Below, piece after piece: positions 2,840 through 11,045 of a stretch of 11,045 nt of DNA. The position numbers and the translations under genes are program-made. The stretch is from a virus (taxonomy: Duplodnaviria; Heunggongvirae; Uroviricota; Caudoviricetes): the IMG/VR virus record IMGVR_UViG_3300031902_000927; one strand, written 5' to 3'. Under the pieces are notes generated by a model that saw nothing but the letters and a program-made list of their open reading frames with translations, had not been told where the DNA came from and made no database searches. Numbering within the stretch: the stretch's first letter is position 1; every line of letters starts with the position of its first letter.

Positions 2840-2996
2840 AAATCTCAAAAATCTCAAAATGTAAAATTAAATCTCAAAATGATTTTCGTCACCATATAGA
2901 AATAATTAATTTTAATTTTCGTCACTATAAAATAATTAAAATCGTTTTGAGATTTTTTACATTTGATTAAAAGTTTTAAGCTAATATTTTGAGATT
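2840..2996. repeat. Iteron-like cluster A: 3x AATCTCAAAA then 2x TTTTGAGATT, arranged as an imperfect inverted repeat around a tandem ATTTTCGTCAC repeat
   Basis: ATCTCA at 2842, 2851, 2871; TGAGAT at 2948, 2990. Arms 2869-2886/2938-2955 pair at 17/18 positions. ATTTTCGTCAC at 2882-2892 and 2915-2925. Confidence 0.85.
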
Positions 2997-3091
2997 ATTT
3001 TTAAATTTATATAATTTATAATTTTTTAAAAATTTTACAAGCTTAAATATATAATATTATATATAATATATATCACTTTAATATATATCAA
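2997..3091. other. Extremely AT-rich tract, putative DNA-unwinding element of a replication origin
   Basis: 6 G/C in 95 nt by hand count; contains the 18-bp palindrome ATATATAATATTATATAT (3047-3064); bracketed by the two TGAGAT clusters. Confidence 0.6.
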
Positions 3092-3172
3092 TGAGATTAT
3101 TGAGATTCTTGAGATTCTTGATATCATACGTCATATGATGATTGGGTTATCTCAAGAATCTCAATAATCTCA
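3092..3172. repeat. Iteron-like cluster B: perfect 24-bp inverted repeat built from 9-bp TGAGATT(A/C)T units
   Basis: TGAGATTATTGAGATTCTTGAGAT (3092-3115) is the exact reverse complement of ATCTCAAGAATCTCAATAATCTCA (3149-3172). The 33-nt spacer contains an inner ATCATA/TATGAT inverted repeat (3123-3128/3134-3139). Confidence 0.9.
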
Positions 3173-3314
3173 AGGTTTTCTATCTTTGATAGTGGGAGTG
3201 GCTTCTGATATATACAATTTGATAGTTTTAGTTAATTTTTATGATTCTTTATATTAAATCAAAAACTATTTAAAGATGTGATTGATTTTTAATTTTGGTG
3301 TGGGATGATTGTTT

Positions 3315-3743
3315 ATGGTCGGAGAGTTAGAGGATAATAAATCTGATATTACTAAAGAATATAATACTACTAAAGATTTAGAAGATTTTACAAAAACGTA
3401 TTTTTCTAAAGACGATGATGTTAGTTATTCTGTTAGAGAAATATTTAAAAAATATACTTCTCAATATCCTAAAACATTTTGGATGATGTTTGGTCGTAAG
3501 AATTTGAATTTGTTCTATAAGTATTGGTTGCAGCATCAACAAGCAGATGTCGAGTTCGATTGGGTTGTTGAAAAAGAATTTTTTTATATCAATGAAGAAG
3601 ATTGGAAGAATTATATCAAAAGATTAGAATCATATTCTGGGCTTAAAATAAGCGAAGATAAACAATCATTTGTAATAGAAGGAGATAAAAGATTAAAGTT
3701 TGAAAAGATGTTTAAAGAAGCAATAAATTTGGAGGACCAATAA
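3315..3743 (+). CDS. Stand-alone paralog of the N-terminal domain of the adjacent MCM-like helicase (142 aa from ATG 3315; track start TTG 3309); candidate origin-binding/loader protein
   Basis: Gapless alignment of track residues 37-138 with helicase residues 15-116 gives 48/102 identities (KTFW..FGRKN, YWL, EFF..EE.W..Y..RL..YSG, QSF.IEGDK.L.F). TAATG coupling to the helicase. Function is inferred. Confidence 0.85.
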   Translation: MVGELEDNKSDITKEYNTTKDLEDFTKTYFSKDDDVSYSVREIFKKYTSQYPKTFWMMFGRKNLNLFYKYWLQHQQADVEFDWVVEKEFFYINEEDWKNYIKRLESYSGLKISEDKQSFVIEGDKRLKFEKMFKEAINLEDQ

Positions 3744-6262
3744 TGGAATCTCCCATCAATCAAATTGAGTTTTCTCAAATTGATGAAGTTAATCCTAAAA
3801 TAAGGGAGTTGTTCAAAAATTTTATTTCTAAAGATAGTAAAACATTTTGGTCTAAATTTGGAAGGAAAAATTTTCATTTGATGTTTCAATATTGGCTTAA
3901 ATATAAACAAAATAATCTTGATTTTGAGTGGATTGTAAAAAGAGAATTTTTTGGTATGGGTGAAGAAGAATGGGAAAAATATGTTGAAAGACTATTTAAC
4001 TATTCTGGAATAATAGTTAGTCCAGATTTACAATCATTTACAATTGAAGGAGATAAGAAATTAAGATTTGATAGTATTTACAATCAAGCGTTTGAGTTTT
4101 GTGAAAGAAGAGATTCCAAAGTCAAAGAATTAGATACTCAAAATGAGAGTGTAGAAGGCATAGAAGTAAATTCAGAAGGAAAATATGAAATTAAAAATGA
4201 AATTGTTACAAACAATGTTGTAGATTCTTTGATACGTAAAATTGCTCCATTTATTCCAGAGTTTAAGTTAATGGGTGATTTAACACAGATAAATTATTTA
4301 GAAGACAATTATGAATCTATACAAAGAGTTAAAACTAAAGTTCTAAAAAGAATTAGATTAAAGGTTCAAATTAAGTGGATAGCAGATTACATTTATGTTT
4401 GTCCGAGATGCAAGGTATCATTACTTAAAGAACCAGACGAGATGTCTGCGAAGTCTATAAGTCATTTCCCTTGCCCAATGAGTGGAACAACTCCTGTTGC
4501 AATATCAAGAGGAGCATACAAAGAAGGAAAAACTCTAAATCTTTATTGTTATGAAGTATATGTTTTTGATGCTAATAACAACAAAGATAAAAAACAATTT
4601 TTCAGTTTTGATAGTAATTTAGCAAGAGGATATTATATGATGGATGTAGTCAATTTTAAAGGAAGAATTGTTGCACCAGATGATAGAAATAAAAAAACTG
4701 TAATTTTAGGTGTTGAAAGAATAACTCCGAAATTAGGATTTGAATTTAATAGACTTAGAGGAATGGAACTTGCTAGAAAATATGGAGTTAAATATCATAA
4801 AATATTTGATATTCAAGCAGGTATTATTGATTATTATAAGACTAAGAATATTATAATTAAACCAGAAATGGGTGGATTAATACAACAATATTTATTGATG
4901 AGTGCTTTAATGAAAGTAGTTTTTAAACATCAATATTATTTAATTTCTGTAATAGGAGATACGTCCTTATCTAAAACATATCCTTCAAAATTGTTCTGTG
5001 AGATATTAGATACAGATTATGAATATGTTTCGAGAGATACTTTTTCAGAAGCAGGATTTTTAGGTGGTGTTAATGTTAATTACAATATTGGTGGAGTTAA
5101 TATGTCACAATTTCAAGAGGGAATTGTAACAACAGCAGGTTTATTAACACTAGATGAAGCAGAAAATTTTTATGATTTAAATGAACCTTATAATTCTTTA
5201 TTGAAGTCGATGCAGAATGAATCTTCTAATATACGTAAAATTGGTGGTGAAGAAGTACCATTGAATTGTACACCAATAATTTTGTGTAATTTATTTAAAC
5301 ATCATCGTAATGAGAATGAGAAAGAAAAATCTTATATTTCAGAAATCAAACAACTTTATTATCGTAGAATAGCCAAAGTTGATGAAACAGAGTTAGCACA
5401 ATATCATAAAAAGACAAGAATTGATTCAGATAGATATGTTATGCAGCAAGATTTATTTTTACCATTACAATTTATAGAGAATAAATATTTACAACAAGTT
5501 ATTGGATGGATAAGGAATAAGTATAAACACAATGATTTATGTTGGTACACAGGAGGAACATTAGCTGCTCAAAATAGAATTTTCTTTGATTGTATATGTA
5601 AAATTAATGAATATGTAAATGATGATGAAGAGTCATTTACAGATGTAGGTAGTGTTGGAGCACATAATCAAAATCAAACTAATTTACCAACGGAGGATTT
5701 CTGTTATAGCGTTCGAAAGTATTTGCTTGGTGATAAAGATATTGGATTAACTTATTTTGGAAGAGAAAAAAATAATTCAGATATAGAAGAGCAGATTAAA
5801 AAATTAAGTGCTAATGTTGAAAAATATCTTAAAGGAGAAGGTAAATTCATTGAAACACATTTTAAAGATGGAGCAAGAAGAGTTGATAGTAAAATACAAG
5901 AATTAATAGTTGCACTTTATATTGGTGTACAATTAATTAATGATATTGATGCAACAGATTTAGATTCAGCAACTAAAGATTATATGTCAAATGTTTTATT
6001 AAAAACAAAAAGAGGAGTTACTGTAGATGAATATAATTTTATTTCTCATACATATCATCCAAATAAAGAAATTATTGAAGCAAAAATATTAAATGAATTT
6101 GAATATTATACAGATTTTATTAATCAAGAAGCAGAGGATAAATTAAAAGAGAAAGGAAGAGAAGAAGGTAAGGCAGAAGTATTAGCAGAGTTTGGATTAA
6201 ATAAAATAATAAGTTTAGATGATGATAAAAAGAAAACTGGAAAAGACGGTGACGAAGAATGA
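3743..6262 (+). CDS. mcm: Divergent MCM-family AAA+ replicative helicase (839 aa)
   Basis: Zn-finger CPRC (220-223)...HFPC (241-244). Walker A GDTSLSKT (405-412; cf. GDPGxAKS), SEAGFLGGV (cf. SAAGLTAAV), Walker B LTLDE (468-472), MQNESSNIRKIGG (cf. MEQQTISIAKAG), sensor-1 N516, QNRIFFD (cf. SRFD arginine finger, R612), sensor-2 ARR (711-713). GGAGG RBS 7 nt upstream. Confidence 0.85.
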   Translation: MESPINQIEFSQIDEVNPKIRELFKNFISKDSKTFWSKFGRKNFHLMFQYWLKYKQNNLDFEWIVKREFFGMGEEEWEKYVERLFNYSGIIVSPDLQSFTIEGDKKLRFDSIYNQAFEFCERRDSKVKELDTQNESVEGIEVNSEGKYEIKNEIVTNNVVDSLIRKIAPFIPEFKLMGDLTQINYLEDNYESIQRVKTKVLKRIRLKVQIKWIADYIYVCPRCKVSLLKEPDEMSAKSISHFPCPMSGTTPVAISRGAYKEGKTLNLYCYEVYVFDANNNKDKKQFFSFDSNLARGYYMMDVVNFKGRIVAPDDRNKKTVILGVERITPKLGFEFNRLRGMELARKYGVKYHKIFDIQAGIIDYYKTKNIIIKPEMGGLIQQYLLMSALMKVVFKHQYYLISVIGDTSLSKTYPSKLFCEILDTDYEYVSRDTFSEAGFLGGVNVNYNIGGVNMSQFQEGIVTTAGLLTLDEAENFYDLNEPYNSLLKSMQNESSNIRKIGGEEVPLNCTPIILCNLFKHHRNENEKEKSYISEIKQLYYRRIAKVDETELAQYHKKTRIDSDRYVMQQDLFLPLQFIENKYLQQVIGWIRNKYKHNDLCWYTGGTLAAQNRIFFDCICKINEYVNDDEESFTDVGSVGAHNQNQTNLPTEDFCYSVRKYLLGDKDIGLTYFGREKNNSDIEEQIKKLSANVEKYLKGEGKFIETHFKDGARRVDSKIQELIVALYIGVQLINDIDATDLDSATKDYMSNVLLKTKRGVTVDEYNFISHTYHPNKEIIEAKILNEFEYYTDFINQEAEDKLKEKGREEGKAEVLAEFGLNKIISLDDDKKKTGKDGDEE

Positions 6263-7620
6263 TGTATGACATCAATAAACAATATTATGAAGAATATTTG
6301 AGCTTTAATTTATTTTTAGAATTTAGAATAGTGGATAAGACTAAATTTTTTAAAGATAAAAAAGGAGTAGATACAAAAAGAAATATTATGTTTTCTAAAT
6401 ATGCGCAAAATATAAATGATGTACAAGAAATATTAGATGTTTATAGTGGAGACCAATATATTATTTATGTTTCATCAAACACAAGACCAATTAAAGTTAA
6501 AACAGATTCTTCTGTAGTTTATAGAAGAACATTTTTCTTTGATATTGAAGGAAGTGGAGTAAAACCACCATTAACTAACGAAGAATATTATCAAAAGTTA
6601 TTGAATACTGCAATGTATGTTTGGAAAAAACTTCAAGATATAGGAATAGAACCAAATGTATTAAAAGAATCTGGAAGAGGATTGCACGTTGGAATAAAGA
6701 TAATTCCAATGAGTATAAAAAAGTACGATACATTATTTAAAATTTGGTGGAAACAATTTGTAACAGAGATTGAAGAGAAAAGACCTTATACAGATATTAA
6801 ATTTAGTGATAATATGTCAAATCCATCAAGAATTGAATCTGCTCCTGGAAGTCGTCATAATAAATATGAAGAAAAACCTGAAAGGAAAGTTTTAGTTTTA
6901 AAAGTACACGAAAATAATATGTTACCAATATTGAGTAAAATTGCTGTTTATCAGAAAAGAGAATCTAAATTATCTAACAAAACACTTAAATCAAAATATG
7001 TTTATGATGACGATAATATTTATATGGAATGTCCAGAATGGTTATTATTAGAAAATTATAGAAATTTACCAGAAGGAGAAATTCATAATAAAATTATTGC
7101 AATGTTAAAATGTATTGTTAGAGATAATGAGTTGGATGCCCTAAAAATGCAAACTAAGTTACAAGAAATAGGATATAACGAAGTTATTGATGTACCACAT
7201 AAAGATATGAAATATAGTCCTTTTGTTTTATTTAATTGGTGTATGAGAAACTATATTTTTTGTTGTGATAATGATGTTGTTGTAGATTTTCCAAATGCAG
7301 AAAATTATTTTAATAGTTCTTTGAAAAATATTATATCAATTACTAGATTACAATACAATACAATTTTGAATATAGAAGATAGACCAATAAATAGTTATCG
7401 TGAAATGAAGGAATTTATTAAAGAGTTTAATACAAAAACTGCGGCTTGGTATGGTGATAGATTAGCAATTTATGAGCAAGAATTAAAATTAAGACTTGAG
7501 AAGAATTGTAATAAAAAATTATATGATTATATTATAAACAAATGTCAATTATGGGATTTCATAAAAAGTGAAATAATATTGAAACAATACATCGAGGATA
7601 ATGGAATTAGGAGATTGTGA
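6259..7620 (+). CDS. Archaeo-eukaryotic primase (AEP) superfamily primase/primase-polymerase with Cys-containing C-terminal region (453 aa)
   Basis: Motif I FFFDIE (D95-x-E97), motif II SGRGLH (138-143), motif III D184...R191..PGS.H.K. C-terminal CPEW...EGEIHN resembles a PriCT/PriL-type helical domain. ATGA overlap with mcm; GGTGA RBS 6 nt upstream. Confidence 0.85.
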   Translation: MMYDINKQYYEEYLSFNLFLEFRIVDKTKFFKDKKGVDTKRNIMFSKYAQNINDVQEILDVYSGDQYIIYVSSNTRPIKVKTDSSVVYRRTFFFDIEGSGVKPPLTNEEYYQKLLNTAMYVWKKLQDIGIEPNVLKESGRGLHVGIKIIPMSIKKYDTLFKIWWKQFVTEIEEKRPYTDIKFSDNMSNPSRIESAPGSRHNKYEEKPERKVLVLKVHENNMLPILSKIAVYQKRESKLSNKTLKSKYVYDDDNIYMECPEWLLLENYRNLPEGEIHNKIIAMLKCIVRDNELDALKMQTKLQEIGYNEVIDVPHKDMKYSPFVLFNWCMRNYIFCCDNDVVVDFPNAENYFNSSLKNIISITRLQYNTILNIEDRPINSYREMKEFIKEFNTKTAAWYGDRLAIYEQELKLRLEKNCNKKLYDYIINKCQLWDFIKSEIILKQYIEDNGIRRL

Positions 7621-8411: not shown

Positions 8412-8693
8412 ATGGAAGACACACAATTAACACTTGACGGAAAAGAAGCTGATAAATCATTACTACTTAAAGAAAGAGCACCATATGTTTGCGAAGAATG
8501 TGGTGGAACAGGCAGAGTTGAATGTAATGTTTGTGATGGAACTGGAGAAAATGTAGTAACTTGTAATTACGGATATGAACATACAGAAGATTGTGATAAT
8601 TGTTTCGGAAATGGTGAAGTTGATTGTATAAGTTGCGATGGACAATCAATATCAGATGATGAAGTATTAGAAGAAGACGTAGAAGAAGATTAA
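8412..8693 (+). CDS. DnaJ-type CxxCxGxG zinc-finger protein without J domain (93 aa)
   Basis: CEECGGTG, CNVCDGTG, CDNCFGNG, CISCDGQS plus a central CNYGYEH; acidic tail; GAGG RBS 7 nt upstream. Confidence 0.8.
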   Translation: MEDTQLTLDGKEADKSLLLKERAPYVCEECGGTGRVECNVCDGTGENVVTCNYGYEHTEDCDNCFGNGEVDCISCDGQSISDDEVLEEDVEED

Positions 8694-9615: not shown

Positions 9616-11045
9616 ATGAAATTTAATCTTAGTCCTAGTTCCATTGCAACATATTTAGAATCTCCTTTATTATTCTATTTTCAATATGTTATAAAAGCTC
9701 CAGAAGATACTTCTGTAGTACAATGTTATGGTATTTCTGGTTCTGTTACCCACTCTGCTTTAGAGTTTTATGTAGAAAATCGTGATTTAGAAAAGACTAA
9801 AGAATTTTTCTTATCTGAATGGGAAAAGAATAAATTAAATGAATTAAAAGGTATGAATGGTAAACCATTATCAATACAACAATATTATGATTGTATGATG
9901 TGGGGTATAAAATTAATTGATTCTAAATTTGAAGTTAAAAATTCTGAATTAAAAATTGAATTTCCATTTAGAGGAGAAATAGGAATAAAAGGAATAGTTG
10001 ATTTGGTGCAAGTCGTAGATGGTGTAAAAGAAATTTGTGATTGGAAAACTTCTTCAACGATTGACAATGATTCTACAAAATTTAGAACACAAGTTCTTAT
10101 GTATAGCTATTTATATTATAAAAAAACTGGAGAAATAATTAATAATGCAAGAATAGTATATCTTAAATTAAAGAAAGATAAAATATATTCTTTTACAGAT
10201 AGTGAAGTTATTAATTTTGAAAAAATTTTAAATGATGTTTTAGATGAAATAGAGTTAAAAGGATTAGATATTTCAAAATATGATTTAGGATATGGTTGGG
10301 AAAATAATATTTTTAATGCTCATAAAAAGAAGTTTAGACAAGAAGCACAGAGAAGAGAAAACATTCAACCTGGAAAAATAATAGCTATACGAAAAGATAA
10401 CAGATTATATTTTCAAAATATTCCAGATGAATTATTTAATTTCTTTCAAACATATTTTAGATACCATCCACTAAATTATTTTAGAGTTCCAGAGTACATA
10501 AGTGGAGAGTGGGACGGATATAAAAGATTCTTCAAATATGATAGTTTTCCTTATGCTTTCTTGTATAAAATGAATGAATTAGTTGAGGCTTATAATAAAG
10601 AGCTTGGTACTAATTATTTTATTGAAATTATTGATGAAAGAAATATGAATGTTGTAAATAAGATTTTTTCTACAAAATTTAAGGAAACAGATATTAAGTT
10701 AAGACCATATCAAAATGATGCAAATAAAGTTATGGAAGAAAAAAAATTAGGAATTGTTTTTGCAGGAACTTCGGCAGGTAAAAGTATTCTTTCAGCAGAG
10801 TTTATTAAAAAACAAAATCGTAGGACATTGTTTGTAGTTAATCGTTTAGAGCTTTCAACACAAACAAAAGAAGTTTTTGAAGATTATCTTGGTGTAGAAA
10901 TAGGTGAGATAGCAGAAGGTCAAATGGATATAACTAAGCAGATTACAGTATCTTGCATACAAACGATATATGCAATATTAAAAAGAAATGATGAAAGTTC
11001 AAAAATTTTAAAAAAATATTTATATAATGTTTCTTGTGTAATATT
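9616..11045 (+). CDS. Fusion of PD-(D/E)XK (Cas4/RecB-like) nuclease and UvsW/XPB-like SF2 helicase (partial, 476 aa in window, continues past right edge; not in ORF track)
   Basis: Hand translation from ATG 9616 has no stop to the edge. Nuclease: LSPSSIATYLESP, GSVTHSALE, E111, KGIVD129, ICD142WK144T, Q159...Y163. Helicase: GEWDGYKRFF (UvsW-like WDG), LRPYQ, motif I AGTSAGKS (383-390), Ia LFVVNRLELSTQ, Ib ITVSCIQT. GGGGT upstream. Confidence 0.85.
   Translation, partial: MKFNLSPSSIATYLESPLLFYFQYVIKAPEDTSVVQCYGISGSVTHSALEFYVENRDLEKTKEFFLSEWEKNKLNELKGMNGKPLSIQQYYDCMMWGIKLIDSKFEVKNSELKIEFPFRGEIGIKGIVDLVQVVDGVKEICDWKTSSTIDNDSTKFRTQVLMYSYLYYKKTGEIINNARIVYLKLKKDKIYSFTDSEVINFEKILNDVLDEIELKGLDISKYDLGYGWENNIFNAHKKKFRQEAQRRENIQPGKIIAIRKDNRLYFQNIPDELFNFFQTYFRYHPLNYFRVPEYISGEWDGYKRFFKYDSFPYAFLYKMNELVEAYNKELGTNYFIEIIDERNMNVVNKIFSTKFKETDIKLRPYQNDANKVMEEKKLGIVFAGTSAGKSILSAEFIKKQNRRTLFVVNRLELSTQTKEVFEDYLGVEIGEIAEGQMDITKQITVSCIQTIYAILKRNDESSKILKKYLYNVSCVI

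Follow-up and report, generated by a model that had tools for sequence, protein, structure and literature searches.

MCM helicases of the canonical archaeal and eukaryotic type contain a subdomain A and depend on Orc1/Cdc6 for loading. In phage P4, reportedly described by Yeo et al. in 2002 (Mol Microbiol 43:855), gp-alpha has a tethered winged-helix origin-binding domain, and the small regulator Cnr, itself proposed to be a winged helix, is said to pair with it and to control copy number. In the orf56/orf904 operon of pRN1, a small first gene is co-transcribed behind a promoter with a B recognition element (BRE) and TATA box, and the small protein controls copy number (PMC4234260). The MCMs of Thermococcales viruses and integrated elements carry winged helix-turn-helix (wHTH) extensions of about 200 aa at the N-terminus, reported to resemble the Orc1/Cdc6 DNA-recognition domain, which have been proposed to join origin recognition and helicase activity without Orc1/Cdc6; N-terminal wHTH extensions have been noted for two T. 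kodakarensis MCMs as well (PMC12934983). Here we analyze a gene pair in IMGVR_UViG_3300031902_000927, a stretch of 11,045 nt from a virus of the Caudoviricetes, hereafter referred to as the window. In this gene pair, a small open reading frame (ORF; protein P0001) lies directly 5' of a large ORF of 839 aa (3743–6262; protein P0002). The new feature of the locus is the true paralogy that we found between the small protein, encoded upstream, and the N-terminal domain of the large protein, an MCM-fold helicase.

In its predicted structure, the large protein resembles canonical MCMs in the zinc finger of its OB-fold tier and in an AAA+ tier that bears two beta-hairpin inserts and an SRF-like arginine motif, and this predicted fold matches MCM chains over about 620 residues. 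It differs from them in lacking sequence-level membership, in its extra tethered N-terminal domain, of which a free copy is encoded upstream, and in the spacing of about 96 residues between the sensor-1 Asn and the arginine motif. As in P4, a replicative helicase carries a tethered domain, which here is only weakly winged-helix-like, and a small separate protein is encoded as well. However, P4 alpha is a superfamily 3 (SF3) primase-helicase with a C-terminal domain, and Cnr is neither an evident paralogue of that domain nor encoded directly upstream. The pRN1 operon also has a small gene ahead of a large replication-protein gene, but ORF56 is a repressor unrelated to ORF904, and ORF904 combines a prim-pol with an SF3 helicase rather than an MCM. 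As in the Thermococcales viruses, a virus MCM carries an extra N-terminal domain, here only weakly winged-helix-like, and no Orc1/Cdc6 is encoded nearby; in contrast to those extensions, the domain studied here is about 110 aa long, acidic and without a significant structural match, the MCM is unrecognizable by sequence, and a free-standing copy of the extension is not described in PMC12934983. The initial annotation of the window knew of no described system with such a layout. The layouts of P4 alpha/Cnr and pRN1 orf56/orf904 are comparable; a true-paralogue small protein on an MCM-fold helicase is new.

BLASTP comparison of P0001 with P0002 yielded one gapless segment (residues 30–136 against 10–116; 51/107 identical, 79% positives, E 1e-36), slightly longer than the 102-residue alignment with 48 identities reported initially. 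Different codons are used at 15 of the 52 identical residues in the wider paralogue alignment, and the codon difference at FGRKN pointed out earlier is present in the sequence. The stop codon of the small gene (TAA, 3741–3743) overlaps the start codon of the helicase gene (ATG, 3743–3745), with a GGAGG 8 nt upstream, at 3731–3735; the TAATG coupling of the two genes was also read directly. The window contains 14 copies of TGAGAT, 11 of which lie within 2842–3172 in groups of 3 (−), 2 (+), 3 (+) and 3 (−), with the triplets at a spacing of 9 nt; near position 3000, the gene strand and the GC skew both flip (sign change of the skew). The gene pair is the first + strand unit beyond this cluster, as the initial annotation had stated. 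On these data, the observation is real and far beyond chance.

The large protein could not be recognized as an MCM by sequence comparison. P0002 had no Pfam match at E up to 0.1 and none in PHROG or NCBIfam; against PDB sequences, it gave no match alone, and a 26-member family profile gave nothing below E 1.6. With a cut-off of E 1, not one of 26 family members gave a match to the Pfam MCM models (PF00493 and the related N-terminal and OB models). An exhaustive search of 1.84 billion representatives retrieved only 43 relatives of P0002, and the helicase family (window 3743–6262, relatives P0008–P0040) comprises about 43 clusters at 50% identity. However, when the AlphaFold model based on the family alignment (predicted local distance difference test, pLDDT, 80; predicted template modeling score, pTM, 0.70) was compared with PDB by Foldseek, every one of the top 50 matches (E 6e-15 to 3e-13) was a chain of MCM2-7 or of an archaeal MCM. 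Alignment of the model to MCM chains by VIA-align gave Z values of 17–19 over 400–470 aligned residues (root-mean-square deviation about 5 A), and the MCM-aligned part extends from residue 134–147 to about 760.

Three cysteine residues (C220, C223 and C244) are invariant in the family alignment of 26 sequences and H241 is invariant among the closest six, and a zinc finger C220/C223/H241/C244 is predicted within the OB-fold N-terminal tier of the helicase. The residues K411-T412, D471-E472, K499, N516, R591 and R612 are also invariant in this alignment. From the residue order and the fold match, K411-T412 would correspond to Walker A, D471-E472 to Walker B and N516 to sensor 1. Beta hairpins were predicted at residues 441–459 and 494–506, the latter with K499, and an NR(I/L)FFD motif is located at residues 611–616; the first hairpin would fit the helix-2 insert of MCM, the second its pre-sensor-1 hairpin, and the motif its SRF arginine finger. 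So assigned, the AAA+ motifs of P0002 (Walker A, helix-2 insert, Walker B, pre-sensor-1 hairpin, sensor 1 and SRF-type finger) follow the MCM order. Judging from the model, the large protein is a structurally very divergent MCM, belonging to the fold but not to the sequence family. The MCM label of the initial annotation was thus borne out at the level of the predicted fold (Foldseek and VIA-align), but not by sequence matches in Pfam, PHROG, NCBIfam or PDB.

As the MCM match begins at residues 134–147 and residues 123–134 are predicted to be disordered, residues 1–122 of the helicase appear from these alignments to constitute a tethered extra domain outside the MCM body. The initial impression that this domain is not a typical MCM subdomain A was supported as far as these comparisons go: it lies outside the MCM-aligned region and showed only weak matches, to winged-helix domains of the MarR type; Mcm5 chains were found only at a Foldseek E of about 0.4 and were not among the VIA top 50. 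The model of the free copy alone had a pLDDT of about 90 for residues 30–142, with residues 1–26 disordered, and its secondary-structure elements run helix–helix–helix–strand–short helix–helix–beta hairpin–long helix. The duplicated domain, as modeled, weakly resembles a winged helix with flanking helices. Fold searches with the isolated domain revealed no significant match in PDB, AFDB clusters, ESM Atlas or BFVD: Foldseek E values were 0.1 or worse in PDB, AFDB clusters and BFVD, and the ESM Atlas matches had TM scores of 0.41–0.45. MarR-family chains outnumbered those of any other family in the wide VIA list and made up most of the second-look list, with Z values of at most 5.0. The Cdc6 chain 1fnn_A matched the isolated domain only at a Foldseek E of 1.0, and the free copy, with its 142 residues, no P-loop and no family match, does not have the Orc1/Cdc6-type architecture, in which a winged helix stands C-terminal to an AAA+ module. 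In a language-model search, the domain had a borderline similarity (score 0.90; 138–145 shared features, against 170 typical for true members) to small phage proteins, some of them with Pfam Pox_D5, and we consider this a lead only; for the Pox_D5/P4-alpha winged helix (PF03288), there was no Pfam match at E up to 0.1 and no PDB profile match.

The domain is mildly acidic (isoelectric point, pI, 5.0–6.3), and Trp, Phe and Tyr account for about 20% of its residues. The would-be recognition helix (residues 94–104) begins with EE[DE]W in most copies, and its polar positions differ between the two copies of the window (K-N...K-R vs. E-K...E-R). The would-be wing tip carries an invariant Asp115. 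Judged from the sequence, neither this helix nor the wing has the basic or polar character that would suit DNA contact; two basic patches are nevertheless kept in both copies, at free-copy residues 60–63 and 125–128. A candidate kinship of the domain with the C-terminal region of the helicase (weak BLAST match, E 2.9) was ruled out by an hhalign probability of 0.2%.

Profile matches to the tethered domain were found in the closer clade of helicases (E 1e-31 to 1e-36), and the N-termini of the distant clade aligned with it in hhalign (E 1.6e-4 over 79 colinear columns), with P0029 and P0041 linking the profiles of the two clades. The tethered domain, of about 110 residues and rich in aromatic residues, appears from these comparisons to be family-wide; no tandem doubling was observed among the longer family members. 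The free copy, in contrast, is known from two lineages only, that of the window and L009–L011. In the latter, which provide the recurring pair of small ORF and helicase that the initial annotation had suggested looking for, P0041 (130 aa) is encoded directly 5' of an 836-aa helicase, with the same stop/start overlap (TAATG) and the GGAGG found in the window. The free-copy protein of the window lineage has been recorded on contigs as long as 105.7 kb. Eight further metagenome contigs from different samples were identical in DNA to the window over the region, so there were no polymorphisms to count for population-level selection. No further free copies were found by an IMG/VR scan with P0001 and no further relatives by a metagenome scan with P0002, and a profile search of 5.8 billion proteins for more free copies and relatives recovered only the window's own cluster and fragments.

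The helicase-core tree had the topology (window,(L009,L012)), with a support of 97/98. L012, the sister of L009, has kept the tethered domain, but has no free copy or remnant near the helicase. The free copy is likewise missing beside the helicase in five more distant lineages (L013–L017), which have the same synteny: a divergent block of genes, then an intergenic region, then the helicase and a gene of roughly 450 aa. Since the free copy is absent beside the helicase in L012 and L013–L017, several of which have repeat arrays, it is most likely an accessory and not a replacement for Orc1/Cdc6, contrary to the initiator role put forward in the initial annotation.

The free copies of the two lineages are each other's closest relatives (52–56% identity), whereas the fused copies of the same lineages are 34% identical. 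In the maximum likelihood tree, the two free copies grouped together, although support was not strong (72/88). An independent duplication in L009 was disfavored (approximately unbiased test, p-AU 0.03), and a single clade of the three fused copies was not rejected (p 0.26). The simplest history compatible with these sequences would be one old duplication followed by a loss in L012, with transfer of the free copy between lineages as a conceivable alternative. Nei-Gojobori estimates of nonsynonymous (dN) and synonymous (dS) substitutions were dN 0.32 and dS 1.30 between the free copies, dN 0.61 and dS 1.40 between the fused copies, and dN 0.43 and dS 1.04 between the free and fused copies within the window. 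The resulting dN/dS ratios (0.24 for the free copies vs. 0.43 for the fused copies) are in agreement with the purifying selection claimed earlier for both copies, but they are rough, because dS is near saturation (1.0–1.7). In the trees, the free copies and the helicase core have equally short branches. The lower dN/dS and the short branches therefore indicate that constraint on the free copy is no weaker than on the core, and stronger than on the tethered domain.

The intergenic repeats are lineage-specific, and some arrays have a 9-nt spacing as in the window. In the window's intergenic region, AATCTCAA is the top word, with 9–11 copies, and in that of L009 the repeat is AAGTTACG, with 7–11 copies, partly at 9-nt spacing. 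Since arrays exist in lineages without the free copy, this protein cannot be an obligatory reader of the repeats. Moreover, a repeat-reading specificity shared by the free and fused copies, as had been suggested initially, predicts residues that are common to both copies of one genome but differ between genomes. Only one such position was identified, a conservative R/K change, versus 25 conserved free-specific and 13 conserved fused-specific positions, and the would-be recognition helix and wing tip are acidic; the suggestion was not supported. As the class-specific positions are maintained across unrelated repeats (TGAGAT vs. CGTAAC), the free copy tracks a conserved target and not the repeat sequence. 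The pattern of conserved residues points to functional divergence of the free and tethered forms, and also to a conserved target of the free copy, for which a surface on a protein, for example on the helicase, is one candidate.

The features of the locus are listed in Table 1.

Table 1. Coordinates in the window of the gene pair, its domains and the adjacent elements.
Feature	Position	Strand	Description
TGAGAT/ATCTCA repeat cluster, candidate origin	2842..3172	.	11 copies at the strand/GC-skew switch
Promoter-like block with TATTTAAA (TATA-like) box	3257..3290	+	Box about 45 nt 5' of the small-gene ATG; common to L009 (alignment)
Small gene (free copy, P0001)	3315..3743	+	142 aa; predicted: residues 1–26 disordered and acidic, residues 30–142 a compact alpha/beta winged-helix-like domain
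Gene junction	3731..3745	+	GGAGG ribosome-binding site within the last small-gene codons, then TAATG overlap; nearly identical in L009
Tethered (fused) domain copy, helicase residues 1–122	3743..4108	+	Paralogy by BLASTP; order of secondary-structure elements as in the free copy
Linker, helicase residues 123–134	4109..4144	+	Predicted disordered, pLDDT <50
MCM-fold body of the helicase	4145..6262	+	OB-fold N-terminal tier with zinc finger, AAA+ tier, C-terminal helical region

The block of about 35 nt containing TATTTAAA (window 3257–3290; L009:610–650) is nearly identical in the two lineages, although the synonymous sites of the genes are near saturation; from its sequence, it is probably an archaeal-type promoter with its leader. 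A scan for sigma-70 promoters found no more sites than expected by chance, and no terminator was found. Another word, TGATAGT, is present in 10 copies in the window versus 2.4 expected, a number reached in none of 200 shuffles. Four of its copies are intergenic (2732 on the − strand, 2788, 3187 and 3220), and the stretch from the TGAGAT cluster to the promoter-like box contains two of these. Repeat words were also recorded in the relatives. The CGTAAC/GTTACG word of L009:190–480 resembles that of the distant L014, in which AAGTTACA occurs in 17 copies at L014:3979–5290. Weaker arrays consist of AATACCT in L012:1820–1930, TAGTGAAA in L015:3089–4000 and ACTTTTGA in L013:4491–5320.

The window is AT-rich (about 26% GC) and contains the replication module of an uncultured AT-rich virus that probably has a host from the archaeal domain; the TATA-like promoters and gene content, on which this is based, suggest an archaeal, possibly DPANN, host. 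The gene 3' of the helicase (6259–7620; 453 aa) is syntenic in all the lineages (429–453 aa) and has a faint match to the LigD prim-pol (E 0.096) and no PDB sequence match; it may encode a very divergent archaeo-eukaryotic primase. A PD-(D/E)XK nuclease domain fused to a superfamily 2 (SF2; ResIII/DEAD) helicase is encoded at 9616–11043 and runs past the end of the window; its full length in L001 is 733 aa, and a B-family DNA polymerase gene starts about 4 kb downstream from it in that contig. An open-ended ORF on the − strand (1–1263), with a signal-peptide-like N-terminus and many N-x-S/T sequons, looks like a gene for a glycosylated surface or virion protein. Finally, a 93-aa protein (8412–8693) has weak matches, under the Pfam cut-offs (E 1e-4 to 5e-4), to DnaJ/BSD2-type CXXCXGXG zinc-finger repeats.

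We tentatively favor a role for the free copy as a co-translated accessory regulator or partner of the tethered domain of the helicase, or of helicase loading. The domain was duplicated long ago in one subclade of the sequence-orphan MCM-fold family, where the free copy persists at the head of the helicase operon, its translation coupled to that of the helicase. Being produced alongside the helicase, the free copy might act on the tethered domain by pairing of the copies, or alternatively on a conserved partner of that domain, and might in this way govern at what point a hexamer can bring its six tethered domains to the origin region. The free copy would not be an origin-reading initiator, and it is dispensable in relatives. 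The analysis shows the paralogy and its age, the constraint, the coupling, the MCM fold, the repeat cluster and the distribution among relatives; binding and any effect on replication are what we infer here. Several points weigh against this explanation. No contact of the free copy with the helicase or with DNA was predicted with confidence; a complex prediction for the whole helicase and the free copy scored 0.00, but it was made without controls and has no bearing on binding either way. The assignment of the domain to a fold is weak, with a best Z of 5.0 and Foldseek E ≥ 0.1. The fused copy evolves about twice as fast as the free copy, whereas co-evolving partners might show similar rates. 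The two conserved basic patches, together with the origin-binding proposal for viral MCM extensions (PMC12934983), keep DNA binding in consideration. Furthermore, the comparative signals rest on few sequences, as only two lineages have the free copy, and dS is near saturation (1.0–1.7).

The position of the gene pair, the first after a symmetric 11-copy cluster at the strand and skew switch, would be in keeping with a model in which the domain read TGAGAT and the free copy marked the origin and recruited the helicase by free-fused contact, in place of Orc1/Cdc6. The winged-helix-like topology, the basic patches at residues 60–63 and 125–128, the lack of an Orc1/Cdc6-like gene called within about 10 kb and the variation between lineages of both the repeats and the fast-evolving N-terminal domain are consistent with such an initiator, as is the origin recognition proposed for the N-terminal wHTH extensions of Thermococcales viral MCMs (PMC12934983). 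However, L012 and L013–L017 have no free copy, and several of them still have repeat arrays; a single position is shared within a genome yet different between genomes; the would-be recognition helix has an acidic start and differs between the window copies at its polar positions, with an invariant Asp at the wing tip; the pI is about 5–5.5; and no DNA-binding domain gave a significant structural match. We therefore consider an initiator of this kind unlikely. Slightly less probable again is that the free copy is an origin-marking, helicase-loading factor that binds the arrays and hands over to MCM by pairing of the copies; if true, this would be an Orc1/Cdc6-independent route of MCM loading that evolved by duplication of the helicase's own targeting domain. 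The regulator or copy-number control that the initial annotation had offered as an alternative fits better.

In one form of such control, autorepression, the promoter that drives the helicase operon would be repressed by the small protein made from it, in the manner of ORF56 in pRN1. The layout is that of pRN1, with a small first gene co-transcribed with the replication protein (PMC4234260), the conserved promoter block lies directly upstream in both free-copy lineages, the best fold matches are to MarR-type repressors, and the loss of a regulator in a relative would be easily tolerated. However, these fold matches are below significance, the would-be DNA-contact surfaces are acidic, and the TATA-like box is not overlapped by TGAGAT, the nearest copy of which ends at 3172, about 95 nt upstream; autorepression also leaves unexplained why a repressor should copy the helicase's own domain. 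We regard it as improbable, to the same degree as the initiator. Rather more doubtful is a neofunctionalized free domain with a separate target, such as a host replication or defense factor. The small t antigen of polyomaviruses, which shares the N-terminal domain of the large T antigen, offers a comparison, and the 25 conserved free-specific positions, the free copy's own disordered acidic N-terminal tail and its slower evolution relative to the fused copy would be expected of such a protein, but the tight coupling to the helicase is conserved in both lineages, pointing to a shared task, and no partner is known. The rarity of the free copy (two lineages) and its loss in one close relative could also be taken as signs of a functionless duplication remnant or a mis-called ORF. 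This is hardly credible, given a frame that is intact in two lineages with near-saturated synonymous sites, a dN/dS of 0.24, a better conservation than that of the fused copy, and a conserved ribosome-binding site and promoter.

With this analysis, a sequence-orphan family with an MCM fold, comprising about 43 clusters, comes to light, the members of which standard annotation would leave as hypothetical proteins. It is not settled by what route the MCM helicases of viruses arrive at their origins in the absence of Orc1/Cdc6, and N-terminal HTH extensions have only recently been proposed as the answer. The locus described here is a natural split version of such an extension, in which the domain occurs both tethered and free in one operon, beside a clean array of repeats, and the free copy is missing from close relatives. 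What the extension does is therefore directly testable at this locus.

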